Origin: a virus
Lineage: Duplodnaviria; Heunggongvirae; Uroviricota; Caudoviricetes
Virus record (IMG/VR): IMGVR_UViG_2657245015_000016
Location: 1 to 5,495 of that record
Strand: one strand, 5' to 3'
Length of the DNA stretch: 5,495 nucleotides
Shown here: in pieces, positions 1-5,495 of the stretch
Position numbering within the stretch: position 1 is the stretch's first letter
How the letters are laid out: the number at the start of each line of letters is the position of its first letter
The notes under the pieces: generated by a model
Seen by the model: only the letters and a program-made list of their open reading frames with translations
What the model was told of the DNA's origin: nothing
Database searches by the model: none
Made by a program: the position numbers and the translations under genes

Positions 1-1
1 C

Positions 2-106
2 GAACGTCTGGTACAGGCACTGGGCCTGGTGGATATCCGGGTGCCGGACCATCTGATAGTCGGTGGCAACCAGGTTTTCTCCTTTGCCGAACATGGTCTG
101 CTTTAA
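2..106 (+). CDS. 3' end of a RadC-like (JAB/MPN, UPF0758) protein gene; partial, 5' end lies outside the window
   Basis: Frame is open from the window edge to TAA at 104-106. The translated tail [34 protein letters not shown] resembles the conserved C-terminus of RadC-like proteins of CP4-type islands (YeeS/YfjY/YkfG family). This is recalled similarity, not a search result. Confidence 0.55.
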
Positions 107-168
107 CCCGTCACAACCACATCACACCTGTTTTCACTTTTATCTTCTGTCTTCAGAGGTATCACATC

Positions 169-390
169 ATGAGAATCATCACCCGTGGTGAAGCCATGCG
201 TATTCACCAACAGCATCCTGCATCCCGTCTTTTTCCGTTCTGTACCGGTAAGTATCGCTGGCACGGCAGTGCTGAAGCGTATACTGGTCGTGAAGTGCAG
301 GATATTCCCGGCGTTCTTGCCGTGTTTGCAGAACGCCGTAAGGACAGTTTTGGCCCGTATGTCCGGCTGATGAGTGTCACCCTGAACTGA
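169..390 (+). CDS. YeeT/YpjJ/YkfH-family small protein (DUF987), the gene that normally sits between radC-like and cbeA in CP4-type islands
   Basis: 73-aa ORF with GAGG about 10 nt upstream of the ATG at 169. The sequence MRIITRGEAMRIHQQHP...FPFCTGKYRWHGSAEAYTGREVQDIPGVLAVFAERRKDSFGPYVRLMSVTLN matches my recollection of E. coli YeeT-family proteins. Its position, radC-like then this ORF then cbeA-like, matches the CP4-44/CP4-57 gene order. Confidence 0.6.
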   Translation: MRIITRGEAMRIHQQHPASRLFPFCTGKYRWHGSAEAYTGREVQDIPGVLAVFAERRKDSFGPYVRLMSVTLN

Positions 391-552
391 TGTTCCGTCA
401 CCCGGGAAACGAGTACGACCAGATGACCTCAGACGCCGCTGTGGATGAGGCCATTCTCATCAATGCATACATCTTCACCGAAACCGGTCAGCGCGCCGGC
501 TGACCTGTCATCGTTAAACCATTCTTAACCACTTTTCAGAGAGGATTTTATC

Positions 553-1173
553 GTGTCAGACAAACTCTCCGGGATAACTCATCCCGATGACAATCACGAC
601 CGCCCCTGGTGGGGGCTTCCCTGCACAGTGAGGCCCTGTTTTGGCGCTCGTCTGGTGCAAGAGGGTAACCGCCTGCATTACCTTGCCGACCGCGCCGGTA
701 TCAGAGGCCGCTTCAGCGACGCAGATGCATACCATCTGGACCAGGCCTTTCCGCTGCTGATGAAACAACTGGAACTCATGCTCACCAGCGGTGAACTGAA
801 TCCCCGATATCAGCATACCGTCACGCTGTATGCAAAAGGGCTGACCTGCGAAGCCGACACCCTCGGCAAATGTGGCGGAAAGGGTGAGGTTTCCACCGCC
901 TGTAAGGATTGCCGTGGGCGTGGTGTCGCCATTCATCGTGAAGAGTCGGTAAAACGTGGTATGCCTGTTATCAGAGACTGCCAGCGTTGTGGTGGTCGTG
1001 GCTGTGAAAGACTACCATCAACGGAGGCATTTAATGCCATATGCAAAGTGACGAGTGCTATCACGCTTGATACGTGGAAAAAATCAGTGAAACGCTTTTA
1101 CGATACGTTGGTGGTTCGGTTTGACATTGAAGAGGCATGGGCGGAGCGGCAGTTAAAGAGGGTAACGCGATAG
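553..1173 (+). CDS. Chimeric ORF: N-terminal ~105 aa of a CbeA/YeeU/YfjZ-family antitoxin fused in frame to the C-terminal ~100 aa of a lambda-Q-family late antiterminator; probably a junction fusion or pseudogene
   Basis: GTG start at 553 with AGAGGA 8 nt upstream. Residues 1-~105 (MSDKLSGITHPDDNHDRPWWGLPCTVRPCFGARLVQEGNRLHYLADRAGIRG...LTSGELNPRYQHTVTLYAKGLTCEADTLG) carry the hallmark GARLVQEGNRLHYLADRA motif of CbeA/YeeU antitoxins. Residues ~110-206 (ACKDCRGRGVAI...IRDCQRCGGRG...LDTWKKSVKRFYDTLVVRFDIEEAWAERQLKRVTR) align with the lambda Q C-terminus (CRDCHGTGRAV...ECGRCKGVGY...QPTWSRTVKPLYDALVVQCHKEESIADNILNAVTR), including the CxxC...CxxC zinc site. A lambda-like pR' lies immediately downstream. 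Confidence 0.8.
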   Translation: MSDKLSGITHPDDNHDRPWWGLPCTVRPCFGARLVQEGNRLHYLADRAGIRGRFSDADAYHLDQAFPLLMKQLELMLTSGELNPRYQHTVTLYAKGLTCEADTLGKCGGKGEVSTACKDCRGRGVAIHREESVKRGMPVIRDCQRCGGRGCERLPSTEAFNAICKVTSAITLDTWKKSVKRFYDTLVVRFDIEEAWAERQLKRVTR

Positions 1174-1178
1174 TGTTG

Positions 1179-1218
1179 TTGATTTTTCCCGAATCTGTGG
1201 TAAATTTGCTCTAACGAT
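1179..1218 (+). promoter_or_regulatory. pR'-like late promoter with a sigma70-dependent promoter-proximal pause element (the expected Q-utilisation region)
   Basis: TTGATT (1179-1184), a 16-nt spacer, then TAAATT (1201-1206), followed by TGCTCTAACGATGGG. This closely resembles lambda pR' (GGTAAATTTGACTCAACGATGGG) and sits directly after the Q-like stop codon, as in lambdoid phages. Confidence 0.55.
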
Positions 1219-1255
1219 GGGCGTTTTATGCCTGACGTTAGAAGATTTTTTACAC

Positions 1256-1278
1256 CCCGCCGCCTGGCGGGTTTTTTT
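1256..1278 (+). terminator. tR'-like intrinsic terminator ending a short pR' transcript (6S-RNA-like)
   Basis: Stem CCCGCC (1256-1261) pairs with GGCGGG (1266-1271) around loop GCCT, followed by seven T (1272-1278). It lies about 65 nt downstream of the predicted pR' start. Confidence 0.7.
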
Positions 1279-1400
1279 ATGACTGAAATCGCGTCAGTAC
1301 AGTAAACGCGCTGGTGGCGGTGAATACCTGTCTTTCAGCTTGCTGGCTTTTTCGACAAGAGTTATTGGTGTGTCACGTTAACCGGAAAAGGGAAAAAGAC

Positions 1401-1598
1401 ATGCTAAAACAGCAGGATATGACAGAAACCGCCAGAGTAGTGTTTAATGAATTAAGCGTTACCGAACCGGCGACAGTCGGGGAGATTGCACAGAATACTT
1501 ACCTTTCACGCGAACGCTGCCAGTTAATACTGACCCAGCTGGTTATGGCGGGTCTGGCAGACTATCAGTTCGGTTGTTACAGACGCCTTCCGCAGTGA
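1401..1598 (+). CDS. Small (66 aa) winged-helix/DeoR-type HTH protein, hypothetical
   Basis: ATG at 1401 is preceded by an AAGGGAAAAAGAC purine-rich stretch. The segment TVGEIAQNTYLSRERCQLILTQLVMAGL has the pattern of a DeoR-like helix-turn-helix. The stop codon falls in the loop of a terminator hairpin. The longer track ORF starting at 1314 is not preferred because it begins in the tR'-proximal region without a ribosome-binding site. Confidence 0.4.
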   Translation: MLKQQDMTETARVVFNELSVTEPATVGEIAQNTYLSRERCQLILTQLVMAGLADYQFGCYRRLPQ

Positions 1599-1608
1599 AG
1601 GCTTTTTT
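1585..1608 (+). terminator. Intrinsic terminator after the small HTH ORF
   Basis: GCCTTC (1585-1590) pairs with GAAGGC (1597-1602) around loop CGCAGT, followed by TTTTTT (1603-1608). Confidence 0.5.
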
Positions 1609-1748
1609 ATTTGTGGTAAATGGGCGGCTGGTGGGTGTTAGGGGCACCCACCAGCCATCTGCTCATGCGTTGGGTTCACAAGCAAACCTCAGGCCCACTG
1701 CTTTGCGCAAAAGCAGAATGAGCCTATCAGAGACAGGCTTAATGATCC

Positions 1749-2798
1749 ATGCTTAATACTGTAAAAATATCCAGTTGTGAGTTAATCAACGCCGACTGCC
1801 TGGAATTTATCCGGTCGTTACCCGAAAATTCTGTTGACCTGATAGTCACGGACCCGCCGTACTTTAAAGTGAAGCCTGAGGGCTGGGATAACCAGTGGAA
1901 GGGCGACGATGATTACCTGAAGTGGCTGGACCAGTGTCTGGCGCAGTTCTGGCGGGTGCTGAAACCTGCCGGAAGTCTTTACCTGTTCTGTGGTCATCGC
2001 CTGGCATCTGATATCGAAATCATGATGCGTGAACGCTTCAGTGTGCTGAACCATATTATCTGGGCGAAGCCGTCCGGACGCTGGAACGGATGCAACAAGG
2101 AAAGCCTGCGGGCGTATTTCCCCGCCACAGAGCGCATTCTGTTCGCGGAACATTATCAGGGGCCGTATCGTCCGAAAGATGCCGGGTATGCGGCGAAGGG
2201 CAGTGCACTGAAACAGCATGTGATGGCCCCGCTGATTTCTTACTTTCGTGATGCGCGCGCGGCCCTGGGGATAACGGCAAAACAGATTGCAGATGCCACA
2301 GGAAAGAAAAACATGGTGTCGCACTGGTTTGGTACCAGTCAGTGGCAGTTACCGAACGAGGGTGATTACAACAAATTGCAGGCGTTGTTTGCGCGTGTTG
2401 CGGCAGAAAAACATCAGCGCGGGGAACTGGAAAAGCCACACCACCAGCTGGTCAGCACATACAGTGAGCTGAACCGGCAGTATATGGAACTGCTGAGTGA
2501 ATATAAAAATTTGCGGAGGTATTTCGGTGTGACGGTGCAGGTGCCGTACACCGATGTGTGGACGTATAAACCGGTGCAGTACTATCCAGGGAAACATCCG
2601 TGCGAAAAACCGGCAGAAATGTTGCAGCAGATAATCAGCGCAAGTAGTCGTCCTGGTGAGCTGGTTGCGGATTTTTTCATGGGGTCGGGTTCAACGGTAA
2701 AAGCGGCGATGGCACTGGGTCGTCGTGCGATTGGTGTTGAGCTGGAGACCGGACGTTTTGAGCAGACAGTCAGGGAAGTTCAGGATTTAATCGTTTGA
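1749..2798 (+). CDS. Orphan DNA methyltransferase, amino-methyltransferase beta class (N6-adenine or N4-cytosine); motif IV DPPY precedes motif I FxGxG
   Basis: 349-aa ORF. LIVTDPPY lies near the N-terminus (catalytic motif IV) and DFFMGSGST near the C-terminus (AdoMet-binding motif I), with a presumed target-recognition region between them. No restriction endonuclease ORF is adjacent. In-frame TGA at 1743-1745 fixes the start at ATG 1749. Confidence 0.9.
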   Translation: MLNTVKISSCELINADCLEFIRSLPENSVDLIVTDPPYFKVKPEGWDNQWKGDDDYLKWLDQCLAQFWRVLKPAGSLYLFCGHRLASDIEIMMRERFSVLNHIIWAKPSGRWNGCNKESLRAYFPATERILFAEHYQGPYRPKDAGYAAKGSALKQHVMAPLISYFRDARAALGITAKQIADATGKKNMVSHWFGTSQWQLPNEGDYNKLQALFARVAAEKHQRGELEKPHHQLVSTYSELNRQYMELLSEYKNLRRYFGVTVQVPYTDVWTYKPVQYYPGKHPCEKPAEMLQQIISASSRPGELVADFFMGSGSTVKAAMALGRRAIGVELETGRFEQTVREVQDLIV

Positions 2799-2809
2799 AA
2801 CGGATGATA

Positions 2810-2838
2810 TTGAAGAATTAATTACGCGTCGTTATTAT
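2810..2838 (+). promoter_or_regulatory. Candidate sigma70 promoter of the tRNA cluster
   Basis: TTGAAG (2810-2815), a 17-nt spacer, then TATTAT (2833-2838). The predicted start is about 8-10 nt before the first tRNA 5' end at 2848. Confidence 0.5.
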
Positions 2839-2847
2839 GCGGCTCCC

Positions 2848-2923
2848 GGCCCTTTAGCTCAGTGGTGAGAGCGAGCGACTCATAATCGCCAGGTCGCTGG
2901 TTCAAATCCAGCAAGGGCCACCA
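2848..2923 (+). tRNA. ileZ: tRNA-Ile2 (anticodon CAU, lysidine-type, reads AUA); ileX/ileZ-like
   Basis: Hand-folded cloverleaf: acceptor GGCCCTT/AAGGGCC, D-stem GCTC/GAGC, anticodon loop CTCATAA, T-arm GCTGG-TTCAAAT-CCAGC, encoded CCA at 2921-2923. It is near-identical in pattern to E. coli ileX from memory. The CAU anticodon alone cannot exclude tRNA-Met. Confidence 0.85.
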
Positions 2924-2930
2924 TCACATA

Positions 2931-3007
2931 CCGCCATTAGCTCATCGGGATAGAGCGCCAGCCTTCGAAGCTGGCTGCGCGGGGTTCAAGTCCCCGATGG
3001 CGGTCCA
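2931..3007 (+). tRNA. argN: tRNA-Arg (anticodon UCG as read from the fold)
   Basis: Acceptor CCGCCAT/ATGGCGG (7 bp), D-stem GCTC/GAGC, anticodon stem CCAGC/GCTGG with loop CTTCGAA (U33, anticodon TCG, A37), T-arm CGGGG-TTCAAGT-CCCCG, encoded CCA at 3005-3007. It starts 8 nt after the preceding tRNA. Confidence 0.85.
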
Positions 3008-3020
3008 TTATCTGCATCAT

Positions 3021-3097
3021 GCGTTGTTAGCTCAGCCGGACAGAGCAATTGCCTTCTAAGCAATCGGTCACTGGTTCGAATCCAGTACAACGCGCCA
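3021..3097 (+). tRNA. argO: tRNA-Arg (anticodon UCU, reads AGA/AGG rare codons)
   Basis: Acceptor GCGTTGT/ACAACGC, D-stem GCTC/GAGC, anticodon stem ATTGC/GCAAT with loop CTTCTAA (anticodon TCT), T-arm ACTGG-TTCGAAT-CCAGT, discriminator G, CCA at 3095-3097. Confidence 0.88.
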
Positions 3098-3111
3098 CAC
3101 TTATTTTCCCT

Positions 3112-3138
3112 GGCTCGCTTTTGCGGGCCTTTTTTTTT
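3112..3138 (+). terminator. Intrinsic terminator of the tRNA operon
   Basis: GGCTCGC (3112-3118) pairs with GCGGGCC (3123-3129), with one G-U pair, around loop TTTT, followed by nine T (3130-3138). Confidence 0.75.
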
Positions 3139-3144
3139 AAATGT

Positions 3145-3359
3145 CTCACAATTCAGACGGTTGACTGTTGTCTGGTTTGCGGGGAGTTTGTTAAAAGAAA
3201 CTGGCATGGTGAATCCCCCTGTGCGGAGGGGCAATCAGCGAGTAGGTATATGGGATAATCGCGGATTCAGGTGCTGGTACTGAATTCACCGGGAGGCACC
3301 CGGCACCATGCAATGGCACATAGCGCCACTCTCCAGCCCCTCTCCGGAGGGGCTTTTCT
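3145..3359 (+). ncRNA. Candidate structured small RNA, copy A of a tandem paralog pair occupying the stx slot
   Basis: Starts at the conserved CTCACAATTCAG block just after the tRNA terminator. Perfectly conserved blocks are shared with copy B: TTTGTTAAAA, CATGGTGAATCCCCCTG, GCGGAGGGGC, CACCGGGAGGCACCCGGCACCATG. It ends in a terminator (7-bp stem GCCCCTC/GAGGGGC at 3336-3353, then TTTTCT). There is no conserved reading frame between copies. No convincing sigma70 promoter was found, so the 5' end is uncertain. Confidence 0.35.
3336..3359 (+). terminator. Intrinsic terminator closing repeat copy A
   Basis: GCCCCTC (3336-3342), loop TCCG, GAGGGGC (3347-3353), then TTTTCT. Confidence 0.6.
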
Positions 3360-3548
3360 GTGCCGGATACATCACAGTTTCTGGAACCTTAGGTACTACA
3401 GTATCAGTCAGGGTGCTATATTTTCAGATGTGATGAAAGCCTGTCAGCAGGCAGGGCGTATCGGAAATGACCCAGTAGAGAAAACGTTGACTCAGATACC
3501 GGTGCTGAGTTACCGGGAAACCGGCATCACATGACCGCTATCCTTCCA

Positions 3549-3575
3549 GGCCCATCCGCTCCGGTGGGCCTTTTT
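3549..3575 (+). terminator. Intrinsic terminator preceding repeat copy B
   Basis: GGCCCATC (3549-3556) pairs with CGGTGGGCC (3562-3570), including one G-U pair, around a 6-nt loop, followed by TTTTT (3571-3575). Confidence 0.6.
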
Positions 3576-3612
3576 ACTGCAGAAAACAGGTTCCCCGTTA
3601 AATGCTATGTTG

Positions 3613-3846
3613 CTCACAATTCAGTAAGTTGACAGTTGCCTGTCAGACTGGGCATTTGTTAAAAAAATTTCGCATGGTGAATCCCCCTGAGCGGAGGGGC
3701 GACTGGTGACGGTATAATCTCTGATTATCAAAACGAGAATGACGCGGGTTTAGTGGCACCGGGCTGAACTCACCGGGAGGCACCCGGCACCATGTGCATG
3801 ATGATACAGATACGCGGCTTTAGCCCCTCTCCGGAGGGGTTTTCTT
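3613..3846 (+). ncRNA. Candidate structured small RNA, copy B of the tandem paralog pair
   Basis: Same conserved block order as copy A, beginning CTCACAATTCAG at 3613 and ending with terminator CCCCTC/GAGGGG (3824-3839) plus TTTTCTT. The internal 5-bp hairpin CCCCT-N6-AGGGG and the CCGGG-AGGCA-CCCGG hairpin are preserved in both copies. Confidence 0.35.
3824..3846 (+). terminator. Intrinsic terminator closing repeat copy B
   Basis: CCCCTC (3824-3829), loop TCCG, GAGGGG (3834-3839), then TTTTCTT (3840-3846). Confidence 0.6.
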
Positions 3847-3852
3847 GTGGGC

Positions 3853-3880
3853 AAAAAAAGCCCGCGCTGGGAGACGCGGG
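3853..3880 (-). terminator. Candidate minus-strand (or bidirectional) intrinsic terminator
   Basis: On the plus strand, AAAAAAA is followed by GCCCGCG-CTGGGAGA-CGCGGGC (perfect 7-bp stem). Read on the minus strand this is a hairpin followed by a T-run. Confidence 0.35.
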
Positions 3881-3949
3881 CGGCAAGGAATAAACAATAA
3901 AACGTGAAGTAATATTTCAGCTGGCGAATAATACCCCATAGTAATCACT

Positions 3950-3972
3950 CTGCGCAACTGCGCGGTCTTTTT
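3950..3972 (+). terminator. Weak candidate intrinsic terminator upstream of the esterase gene
   Basis: CTGCGC (3950-3955) pairs with GCGCGG (3960-3965) around loop AACT, followed by TCTTTTT. Confidence 0.3.
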
Positions 3973-4074
3973 CGAATTGCGGGCTGTCGTCTCTCTTCTG
4001 CCATTGTCCTGTAACTTCCGGACTTCAGCCCGCTCCTTATTTTACTCACAATATTATCCCGGCCGGGAGGATTC

Positions 4075-5322
4075 ATGGCATTTAAACACTATGACGTGGT
4101 CAGGGCGGTATCGCCGTCAGACCTTGCGAAACGACTGACACAAAAACTGAAGGAGGGCTGGCAGCCGTTTGGTAGTCCGGTGGCCATAACCCCTTATACC
4201 CTGATGCAGGCGATTGCAGCAGAAGGTGATGTGGTGGTCAGTGGTGCAACTGAGCCGGATTGGTACTACGTCATCGTACTGGCCGGGCAGTCCAATGCCA
4301 TGGCTTACGGTGAAGGGCTTCCGCTGCCGGATTCATACGATGCGCCCCATCCGCGCATTAAGCAACTGGCCCGTCGTAACACAGTGACTCCCGGTGGTGA
4401 AGTATGCGTATTTAACGACATCATTCCTGCTGACCATTGTCTGCATGATGTTCAGGATATGAGTACGATTAACCATCCCCGGGCTGACCTGAGCAAAGGG
4501 CAGTACGGCTGTGTCGGACAGGGCTTACATATTGCCAAAAAACTGCTTCCGTATATCCCTAATAACGCGGGGATCCTGCTGGTACCATGCTGTCGTGGTG
4601 GTTCGGCATTCACCCAGGGCACGGAGGGGACATTCAGCGAGTCCACGGGGGCCAGTCAGGATTCGGCTCGCTGGGGAGTGGGTAAGCCGTTATATCAGGA
4701 TCTGCTTTTCCGCACGAAGGCAGCATTGCAGAAAAACCCGAAAAACGTTTTGCTGGCGATATGCTGGATGCAGGGGGAATTCGATATGACGAATGCCAGT
4801 TACGCCCAGCAGCCAGCAGCATTTCTTGCAATGGTACAGCAGTTCCGTGCTGACCTTGCCGGGCTGGCGGCGCAGTGTCACGGTGGAAGTCCGGCATCAG
4901 TCCCCTGGATTTGTGGCGACACGACATACGCGTGGAAACAAGAACACGGTACGCAATATGAAGTGGTATATGGTGCATATAAAGGTAAAGAATCCCAGCA
5001 GATTTATTTTGTTCCCTTTATGACCGATGGTAGCGGAGTTAATACACCGACAAACAACCCGTCAGAAGATCCTGATATTGCCGGGTCTGGTTATTACGGT
5101 TCGGCATCCCGAACGAACAAAAACTGGGTATCATCAAATCGCCCGACGCATTTCAGCTCATGGGCGCGTCGTGGCATTATTCCCGATCGTATGGCAACTG
5201 CTATTCTGAACGTAGCCGGTCGCACCTTAGCCTTCATTAGTGGTAAGGCACCGGAAATCAAACCCTCGCCCGGCGGCGACACTCCATCGGGGCCGTCTGA
5301 TGGCCAATCAGAAAGGCGATGA
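4075..5322 (+). CDS. nanS-p: NanS-p-like prophage sialate O-acetylesterase (N-terminal DUF1737-like region plus SGNH/SASA esterase domain with a GQSN motif); possibly C-terminally truncated
   Basis: 415-aa ORF with a strong GGGAGGA ribosome-binding site 4 nt before ATG 4075. The N-terminus MAFKHYDVVRAVSPSDLAKRLTQKLKEGWQPFGSPVAITPY matches my recollection of the DUF1737 start of the gene found downstream of stxAB in 933W-like phages. VIVLAGQSNAMAYGEG carries the GQSN catalytic-serine motif of NanS-type 9-O-acetyl esterases. Its position downstream of the ileZ-argN-argO tRNAs matches lambdoid late-region synteny. Confidence 0.75.
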   Translation: MAFKHYDVVRAVSPSDLAKRLTQKLKEGWQPFGSPVAITPYTLMQAIAAEGDVVVSGATEPDWYYVIVLAGQSNAMAYGEGLPLPDSYDAPHPRIKQLARRNTVTPGGEVCVFNDIIPADHCLHDVQDMSTINHPRADLSKGQYGCVGQGLHIAKKLLPYIPNNAGILLVPCCRGGSAFTQGTEGTFSESTGASQDSARWGVGKPLYQDLLFRTKAALQKNPKNVLLAICWMQGEFDMTNASYAQQPAAFLAMVQQFRADLAGLAAQCHGGSPASVPWICGDTTYAWKQEHGTQYEVVYGAYKGKESQQIYFVPFMTDGSGVNTPTNNPSEDPDIAGSGYYGSASRTNKNWVSSNRPTHFSSWARRGIIPDRMATAILNVAGRTLAFISGKAPEIKPSPGGDTPSGPSDGQSERR

Positions 5323-5385
5323 CACCCACGCCCTGGGCCAGCCAATACGCGGTCATGATAAATCCTTATCAGGTATGGAAAAGCA

Positions 5386-5418
5386 AACGGCGCTTCACAT
5401 TATGAAACGCCGTTTTTT
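5386..5418. terminator. Hairpin terminator, probably bidirectional, between convergent genes
   Basis: AACGGCG (5386-5392) pairs with CGCCGTT (5408-5414), with an inner TTCA/TGAA helix. It is flanked by an A-rich stretch upstream and TTTTTT downstream (5413-5418). Confidence 0.45.
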
Positions 5419-5495
5419 ATTAACAACTCATTTCGACTTTATAGCGTTACGCCGCTTTTGAAGATCGCCAGTTCGCGGAAGTCGTTACGCTCGTT

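Follow-up and report, generated by a model that had tools for sequence, protein, structure and literature searches.

What occupies the slot of the Shiga toxin (Stx) genes in a prophage late region that holds no toxin? The question is raised by a stretch of viral DNA of 5,495 nt (IMG/VR record IMGVR_UViG_2657245015_000016, positions 1 to 5,495; this whole stretch is called the window below), in which the region 3098-4074 lies between three transfer RNA (tRNA) genes and a sialate O-acetylesterase gene. An earlier note, made from the sequence alone, had assigned this region to the stx slot, and the assignment stands, since the stx2A and stx2B genes of the Sakai prophage Sp5 are placed between the same three tRNAs and the esterase gene. 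Within the late operon of a lambdoid prophage, the region is the accessory ('moron') slot, and it holds four small RNA (sRNA) genes. Three of them, arranged head to tail on the plus strand, are paralogous structured small RNAs of the STnc100/EcOnc27/sRNA103/PasD superfamily. In our judgement these three very probably act as Hfq-dependent, trans-acting sRNAs, with the fourth gene converging on the last of them from the minus strand. The note had described the RNA elements as standing there instead of toxin genes; no stx gene is indeed present in the window, but the wording was overstated, because in Stx2 phages a copy of the unit directly follows stx2B, so that units and toxin genes occur side by side and the former are no simple replacement of the latter. 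The features of the region are the following.

3098-4074: small-RNA region, between the tRNAs and the esterase gene
3112-3138 (+): intrinsic terminator, stem 3112-3129 then a T run, directly after tRNA-Arg(TCT)
3138-3203 (+): upstream region and 5' leader of unit 1, conserved across distinct homologues
3204-3362 (+): RNA body of unit 1
3335-3354 (+): terminator-like site of unit 1
3405-3580 (+): middle unit, a third diverged paralog (RNA 3428-3577), from alignment, folding and model R1 (see below)
3548-3571 (+): terminator-like site of the middle unit
3603-3671 (+): upstream region and 5' leader of unit 3
3672-3848 (+): RNA body of unit 3
3822-3841 (+): terminator-like site of unit 3
3853-4074 (-): convergent minus-strand sRNA locus
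3881-3860 (-): terminator-like site of the minus-strand locus
3950-3965 (+): terminator-like site
4045-4052 (+): third copy of CTCACAAT, in the 5' untranslated region (UTR) of the esterase gene nanS-p, 23 nt upstream of its start codon at 4075

The outer two units were already recognized in the earlier note. Segments 3145-3365 and 3613-3852 are diverged copies of one unit and share blocks of 88 nt (3145-3232 versus 3613-3700, 80% identity), 31 nt (3280-3310 versus 3764-3794, 97% identity) and 28 nt (the terminators, 3335-3362 versus 3822-3849, 89% identity), which are separated in the alignment by indel-rich stretches. Both copies contain the hairpins CCCCC-N6-GGGGG and CCGGG-AGGCA-CCCGG, which single-sequence and consensus folding alike recover, and the terminator scan places a terminator at the end of each. 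The same scan located 17 terminator-like sites in the window versus 6.1 expected, and such sites bound each unit. The first of them, with its stem at 3112-3129, ends the tRNA cluster and precedes unit 1; the same sequence is found before unit 1 in many loci. When compared to the Rfam model RF02076 (STnc100), whose gathering score is 47 bits, unit 1 reaches 136.3 bits (3175-3365) and unit 3 reaches 161 bits (3643-3852); the two matches are full-length and cover model positions 1-206.

A more inclusive model was built as follows. IMG/VR loci were gathered with a 16-mer located at the unit 5' end and yielded 94 distinct 300-nt sequences of unit plus flank, among which 62 distinct RNA bodies remained after trimming at the terminator. 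An alignment of 22 diverse units, including PasD and both alleles of the middle unit, produced a consensus fold of 28 pairs, which is the basis of the model R1. The seed of R1 contained all three units of the window and a PasD-type sequence, and the model was searched on the IMG/VR loci fetched by then and on most of the genome-contig loci obtained from a scan with the 16-mer GCATGGTGAATCCYCC. R1 assigns 148.5 bits to unit 1 (3204-3361) and 155.4 bits to unit 3. In unit 1, the closing helix is formed by GCAUGGUG (3204-3211) pairing with CACCAUGC (3304-3311) and encloses the hairpins, CCGGG-AGGCA-CCCGG included; a variable linker (3312-3334) follows and leads to the terminator and its U run. 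Unit 3 is built in the same order, with a closing helix of 3672-3679 and 3788-3795, a variable linker at 3796-3821 and a terminator followed by a U run.

The stretch between these two copies, taken in the earlier note for a spacer, contains a third one. The middle unit aligns to units 1 and 3, and where the helix sequences differ the changes preserve pairing. Its closing helix consists of AUGUGAUG (3428-3435) and CAUCACAU (3525-3532), its hairpins are GCCUG-UCAG-CAGGC, GACUCAG...CUGAGUU and CCGG-GAAA-CCGG, and a linker (3533-3547) precedes its own terminator. Against RF02076 it scores 30.1 bits at 3404-3577, under the gathering score, and its R1 score of 75.7 bits is that of a sequence which was itself in the R1 seed. 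It is accordingly filed as a diverged relative of STnc100 and not as an Rfam-defined member. Folded alone, units 1 and middle each display an 8-bp closing helix round several hairpins, an unpaired linker and a terminator; for the middle unit this family architecture is obtained with z = -2.6. A tRNA-like or transfer-messenger-RNA-like reading of the folded 5' domain was rejected, ARAGORN calling the three tRNAs only.

The fold is strongly supported by covariation. Over 76 distinct homologues, 97.9% of the cells form standard pairs, versus 86.8% in column shuffles and at most 57% in controls where the partner was slid, and 22 of the 28 pairs display changes on both sides. The observed pairing and covariation values were reached in none of 500 shuffles. 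Together with the full-length STnc100 matches and the lack of a conserved open reading frame (ORF) discussed below, these values bear out the paralogous structured small RNAs that the earlier note had proposed.

The family is a published one. STnc100 is known as a family of prophage sRNAs; EDL933 has 11 copies annotated by Rfam, of which STnc100_4 was confirmed by Northern blotting and some carry ribosome footprints (PMC5331693). EcOnc27, identical to sRNA103 (Sakai Sp5; EDL933 and 86-24), is encoded about 75 nt 3' of stx2B; Hfq crosslinking recovered this RNA, and on Northern blots it gives bands of about 235 and 247 nt (PMC4104026). It is described as an Hfq-bound, Northern-detected Stx2-phage RNA in two further reports (PMC12711010, PMC7873438), its overexpression raises the fimZ and espA transcripts (PMC7873438), and it has been found in outer membrane vesicles (PMC12370729). 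PasD1 and PasD2 of enteropathogenic Escherichia coli (EPEC) are Hfq-dependent, have partners identified by RNA interaction by ligation and sequencing (RIL-seq), virulence transcripts among them, and carry the seed UGUGAG between closing helix and terminator (PMC8550237). A common origin of PasD and STnc100 has been proposed in a 2026 preprint (bioRxiv 10.64898/2026.05.13.724894). Finally, Tree et al. 2014 and a later review describe convergent pairs of Hfq-binding sRNAs, located from the late promoter to the lysis genes in at least eight Sakai prophages, and report that stxAB is flanked by such RNAs. Since STnc100, EcOnc27, PasD and the convergent pairs are all published, the array of the window is a member of a described family at a described position: the element is real but ordinary, and not a new kind of element. 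The association with Hfq that the earlier note had considered possible agrees with what is known of EcOnc27 and PasD.

The note had failed to find a sigma70 promoter, which is probably an error. Promoter-like elements are located upstream of each unit as follows.

Unit 1, candidate P1: TAAATG at 3138-3143 and CTCACAAT at 3145-3152, then TTGACT at 3161-3166
Unit 1, candidate P2: -35 TTGTCT at 3168-3173, TG at 3189-3190, -10 TAAAAG at 3192-3197
Middle unit (+): extended -10-like TGCTATATT at 3414-3422
Unit 3, upstream region (+): TGcTATGTT at 3603-3611, CTCACAAT at 3613-3620, TTGACA at 3629-3634
Unit 3, candidate P2: -35 TTGCCT at 3636-3641, TG at 3657-3658, -10 TAAAAA at 3660-3665

The P2 layout upstream of GCAUGG (TTGNNN, 16-19 nt, a TAAAAR-like hexamer, then 5-9 nt) is found in 59 of the 62 distinct upstream regions, and in 42 of these 59 sequences TG precedes the hexamer at a distance of one base, as in an extended -10 promoter. 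Between these conserved elements the spacers diverge widely. A simple promoter scan overlooked the candidates, since it requires a final T that is absent from their -10 hexamers. The 5' end of PasD2, estimated from RNA sequencing, is the G of GCAUGG (PMC8550237), and candidate P2 coincides with this mapped end. Further upstream, a P1 block, (T)TAAAT-N2-3-CTCACAATTCAG, is present about 59 nt before GCAUGG in 42 of the 62 distinct sequences. The Hfq crosslinking peak of EcOnc27 in Sp5 spans -41 to +39 relative to GCAUGG; given this peak and the Northern sizes of about 235 and 247 nt, the longer EcOnc27 isoform must start near the P1 block in Sp5. We infer two start regions, which would give a long and a short isoform. 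No sigma-54-type element (TGGCAC-N5-TTGC) was seen by eye, no tool-based search having been made.

The motif CTCACAAT lends itself to two interpretations. It could hold a -10 element, CACAAT, in which case the predicted start in Sp5 falls 4-5 nt before the crosslinking peak. It is also complementary to the PasD seed region (UUGUGAG), matches the RIL-seq target motif of PasD (CUCACA) and occurs in three exact copies in the window, at the two leaders and at 4045-4052, versus 0.16 expected; the third copy is also conserved in both Sp4 and Sp5. Through the CUCACAA leader motif, the units might be linked to UUGUGAG-seed RNAs such as PasD. Sponging had been mentioned as a possibility in the earlier note. 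In this reading the units would be anti-sRNAs or parts of an sRNA-sRNA network and not regulators of messenger RNAs; their leader could, for example, act as a decoy for UUGUGAG seeds or for the antisense RNA that covers the third copy. The fixed position of the motif, at about -59 in the 42 upstream regions just mentioned, is in keeping with this proposal, as are the sponges AsxR and AgvB known at this phage site. These published sponges are however short convergent partners encoded on the other strand and not the units themselves, a match of 7-8 nt is weak evidence, and the motif may be a promoter part (CACAAT) rather than transcribed sequence. We therefore regard sponging as decidedly unlikely, and retain trans-acting sRNAs as the preferred reading.

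The mode of action proposed for the units can be summarized as follows. Transcription, Hfq binding and regulatory effects are taken from the literature on homologues, whereas for the window the targets, the precise starts of transcription, the seed function of the linker and the expression of the middle unit are inferred. Each plus-strand unit would be transcribed from its own promoter-like elements into an RNA with a conserved 5' domain, in which the 8-bp helix encloses three or four hairpins, and with a 3' part made of a variable, largely unpaired linker, an intrinsic terminator and a U tail. Hfq would bind the U tail of the terminator and A-rich stretches, and the variable linker, where PasD has its seed, would pair with target messenger RNAs or with other sRNAs. 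Since the three linkers differ, the array is proposed to combine a single scaffold with three specificities. Transcription in a lysogen or a prophage remnant would yield each unit separately, ending at the terminator of that unit, and during lytic growth Q-modified polymerase would read through all units.

Several observations weigh against this reading. The minimum free energy structure of unit 3, when folded as a single sequence, is a different, low-frequency fold and not the consensus fold. The pairing values come from an alignment fitted to R1's own structure, which favours structure, although the margin over the slid controls is still large. The start is ambiguous, as PasD begins at GCAUGG whereas the peak and the Northern sizes of EcOnc27 call for a start lying 45-60 nt farther upstream. 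The fimZ and espA effects result from overexpression and may be indirect. The best conserved part is the folded 5' domain and not the presumed seed, an uncommon pattern among Hfq sRNAs and a hint that this domain has a function left unexplained by the sRNA model. Lastly, both alleles of the middle unit contain an uninterrupted ORF of 33-55 codons, which matches phrog_23557 with E = 7e-30.

This ORF is the principal argument for some of the units encoding small proteins, the other candidate product being a peptide read from the conserved AUG (MVNPP...). The ORF matching phrog_23557 is annotated as a coding sequence (CDS) in two phage records, the EDL933 ribosome footprints would agree with translation, and among the nine codons changed between the two alleles four are synonymous and five non-synonymous. 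With two alleles only, the substitution pattern is nevertheless uninformative, and a search of IMG/VR for further alleles of the middle unit returned the two known, single-base variants and one 3'-truncated rearrangement. In the window ATA stands in place of the start codon used in the phage, the internal AUG is not preceded by a Shine-Dalgarno sequence, and PHROG families are built from predicted ORFs, phrog_23557 being without known function. RNA is favoured for the middle unit because it is homologous throughout to the non-coding units and differs from them in ways that keep the helices. As the earlier note had stated for its two copies, no reading frame is common to the units, whose lengths spread over all residues modulo three. 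The ORF starting at the conserved AUG has 8 to 50 codons where it is closed and runs past the 3' end in four more units, and no ORF of 3098-4074 has a Pfam match. A coding reading was rejected, the search of Pfam being empty and the PHROG matches being to families of unknown function built from ORF calls; that certain units encode small proteins is given very little credence here. The existing annotation calls for a separate remark. RefSeq places a partial 'hypothetical protein' pseudogene antisense to unit 1, at 3194-3319 (-) of the window (L001 6394-6519; L131 4023-4148), in E. coli 55989 and ATCC 11775 and annotates no noncoding RNA for unit 1 in either strain. Phage records place small hypothetical CDSs over the units. 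These protein calls are likely spurious calls on RNA genes.

The fourth gene, on the minus strand at 3853-4074, was overlooked in the earlier note, as were the third unit, the copy downstream of stx2B and the conserved promoter-like elements. In alignment it is near-identical to the EcOnc08/21/42 locus of Sakai Sp4. The RNA is antisense to the 5' UTR of nanS-p, and its 3' end is given by the terminator at 3881-3860 with a U run reaching 3853 (GCCCGCGUCUCCCAGCGCGGGC). In Sp4, minus-strand Hfq crosslinking peaks (EcOnc08, EcOnc21) are located at 1179938-1180010 and 1180016-1180101, with a Northern band of about 271 nt; these peaks correspond to about 3855-3927 and 3933-4018 of the window. A similar EPEC sRNA is listed in PMC8550237. 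Assignment of the minus-strand RNA to the AsxR/AgvB class was rejected: no RF02702 or RF02703 match was obtained at E <= 1, and both terminator and body differ from this class, taken (with EcOnc03) as RNAs of 51-60 nt with a 3' region resembling GUAUCUCAUGC..UUGCCCGAACCCAYUCGGGC. The 5' UTR of the esterase gene also contains an inverted repeat of 13 nt (3979-3991 / 4021-4033, 85% complementary), which is conserved both in Sp4 and in Sp5 and falls in the stretch matching the EcOnc21 crosslinking peak on the other strand.

The genes that surround the region are listed below.

553-1173 (+): Q-like antiterminator ORF, 206 residues
1401-1598: small ORF
1749-2798: DNA methyltransferase gene
2848-3097: three tRNAs, called by ARAGORN
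4075-5322 (+): sialate O-acetylesterase gene of the nanS-p / SASA / DUF6645 type, start codon at 4075

The order Q-like ORF, methyltransferase, tRNAs, units, antisense locus and esterase is also that of 55989, Sp4 and Sp5. Positions 871-5303 of the window are the late region of a lambdoid prophage, as a fragment: prophage late regions match the window only over this remnant of about 4.4 kb. Positions 1-867 are 100% identical to a CP4-type island with JAB/RadC-like, DUF987 and YeeU antitoxin genes, and 5304-5495 belong to the core ygjV-uxaA region. Both junctions of this mosaic together were found in no complete E. coli genome of the collection. The junctions at about 870 and about 5303 account for the foreign N-terminus of the Q ORF, the short esterase and the absence of lysis genes. 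The Q ORF is a fusion, with an N-terminal part of about 105 residues that is YeeU-antitoxin-like, the junction near 870, and the zinc-finger-rich end of a Q antiterminator as its C-terminal part; Q is probably non-functional in the window. The esterase gene is shortened to 415 codons, versus about 616-645 in intact prophages, and its ORF ends where the homology changes to ygjV, at about 5303; ygjV itself, on the minus strand, is cut after about 18 codons. No lysis genes follow the esterase in the window. The first of the tRNAs (2848-2923) is called Met (CAT) by ARAGORN and tRNA-Ile (ileZ) by RefSeq, the usual case of a lysidine-modified CAT anticodon. Just 3' of the Q ORF, at about 1183-1280 (+), a late promoter resembling lambda PR' (TTGATT-N17-TAAATT) was read by eye. 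It is followed by AACGAT, which we take to resemble the lambda pause-inducing element, and by a strong terminator (1256-1271 plus T7). The predicted transcript would be short, about 70 nt, and its position analogous to that of lambda 6S RNA and StxS; by blastn, no homology was found between this late-promoter region and the StxS region of Sp5, and the Q types differ.

This context bears on the possibility that the units act mainly in cis on the late operon. Their terminators and folds would keep the esterase and lysis genes silent for any polymerase not modified by Q, or would serve the late transcript as sites of processing and stability, any free RNAs being by-products. The five plus-strand terminator-like sites between the tRNAs and the esterase start are in line with such a role, and so is the location inside a Q-dependent late operon with the PR'-like promoter and terminator 3' of the Q ORF. 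It is difficult to reconcile with the conserved promoter-like elements at each unit, with homologues that accumulate as discrete Hfq-bound RNAs in lysogens, and with the many trans partners of PasD. Moreover, the array is kept in the window, where a purely cis role would be without use since Q is disrupted and no lysis genes follow. A mainly cis role is considered unlikely. With Q disrupted and the lysis genes missing, the sRNAs must, if expressed here, use their own promoters.

The distribution of the units was examined in 5,426 complete E. coli genomes. Of these, 318 carry the whole three-unit arrangement (coverage of at least 80%) and 673 carry the middle unit, as two alleles of about 100% and 91% identity; the middle unit is also found in five phage records. 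A second version of the triple array, in which the flanking units are different ones, was found in further E. coli strains, in phages and in E. albertii, and other tandem loci of two or three units are L032, L046, L047 and L054, two of which hold three tandem units each (L032 1339-1967 and L047 10729-11827). Phage phi296 and Sakai Sp4 have a single unit at the same position. In the taxonomic scan with the 16-mer, true members among the returned loci rescanned with R1 were in Escherichia albertii only, and for this reason no taxonomic range can be drawn from it.

Within the family the 5' domain is near-invariant in sequence; variation is seen in the internal insert and in the linker that precedes the terminator. 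Linkers of identical sequence are joined to different 5' domains with junctions at an invariant CACCGGGAGGCACCCGGCACCAUG block, which points to modular exchange by recombination at this block. One hybrid unit combines an STnc100 5' domain with a PasD-type U-rich 3' region and terminator and another a unit 1-type 5' domain with the linker of unit 3; examples in IMG/VR loci are the units u10 (L010, L021) and u21. Such mosaics are what recombination would give, and one may ask whether the conserved blocks are signals at the DNA level, such as recombination hot spots where accessory genes begin or end, or protein-binding sites, with RNA structure incidental. The compensatory changes in the 22 pairs are not expected of DNA sites and the RNAs of homologues have been observed experimentally; recombination at the blocks is compatible with, and secondary to, an RNA function, and DNA signals as the main explanation appear highly improbable. 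What is modestly new is the combination of a three-unit array, a middle copy not called by Rfam, and a modular build in which a folded 5' domain carries a swappable 3' linker. As a speculation to which we attach only a small, though not negligible, probability, the STnc100/PasD superfamily would be a modular platform whose conserved 5' domain carries 3' linkers swapped at CACCGGGAGGCACCCGGCACCAUG, and the array, with its previously undescribed middle subfamily, a multi-specificity cassette that hosts keep even in a remnant. In this speculation the 5' domain rather than the linker could be the main functional part, for instance as a protein-binding or decoy RNA.

These results have several consequences. 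In prophages and remnants free of stx, regulatory RNAs alone can occupy the accessory slot that holds the toxin genes in Stx phages. One unit in three escapes annotation based on Rfam, and annotation pipelines put spurious hypothetical-protein calls over the RNAs. The family is relevant to virulence: in a machine-learning study (PMC12711010), sequence variants of the EcOnc27 leader ranked with the strongest predictors of haemolytic uraemic syndrome, and PasD interacts with virulence transcripts in EPEC. Knowledge of the scaffold and variable linker build, and of arrays in about 6% of complete E. coli genomes, would aid target searches and annotation.

The array can finally be compared to known systems. 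It resembles STnc100 and EcOnc27 in its 5' domain, in its terminator type and in its position 3' of the late-region tRNAs and 5' of the esterase gene, and the EcOnc27 leader is almost identical to that of unit 3. It differs from EcOnc27 in the linkers between closing helix and terminator, in having three tandem units and in lacking stx. PasD1 and PasD2 (E2348/69; EcOnc13 in Sakai) share the 5' start GCAUGGUGAAUCC, the same helices and the overall architecture, and PasD2 lies directly upstream of the esterase gene, at 86 nt in E2348/69, while in the window unit 3 and the antisense locus precede 4075. PasD scores 72.5 bits with R1, whose seed held a PasD-type sequence, and only 41 bits with the Rfam STnc100 model. 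The seed UGUGAG is missing from the plus strand of all three units, TTGTGAG occurring on the plus strand of the window only at 1775, outside the units; the linker sequences differ, and PasD is without the CTCACAAT leader. The published copies of PasD are reported as dispersed and not tandem (bioRxiv 10.64898/2026.05.13.724894), a statement with which two PasD-like units found in tandem in E. albertii (L143 2111-2576) are at odds.

The convergent pairs AsxR/EcOnc27 and AgvB/EcOnc06 also consist of a long plus-strand sRNA converging on a minus-strand sRNA, as do 3672-3848 (+) and 3853-4074 (-) in the window, but the minus-strand RNA of the window is not of the AsxR/AgvB/EcOnc03 class and two extra plus-strand units precede the pair. 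Paralogous sRNA genes that lie next to one another and have separate promoters and terminators are familiar from OmrA/OmrB, PrrF1/PrrF2 and Qrr. Those RNAs keep the seed and act redundantly or additively, whereas in the units of the window the presumed seed is variable and the folded 5' domain is conserved.

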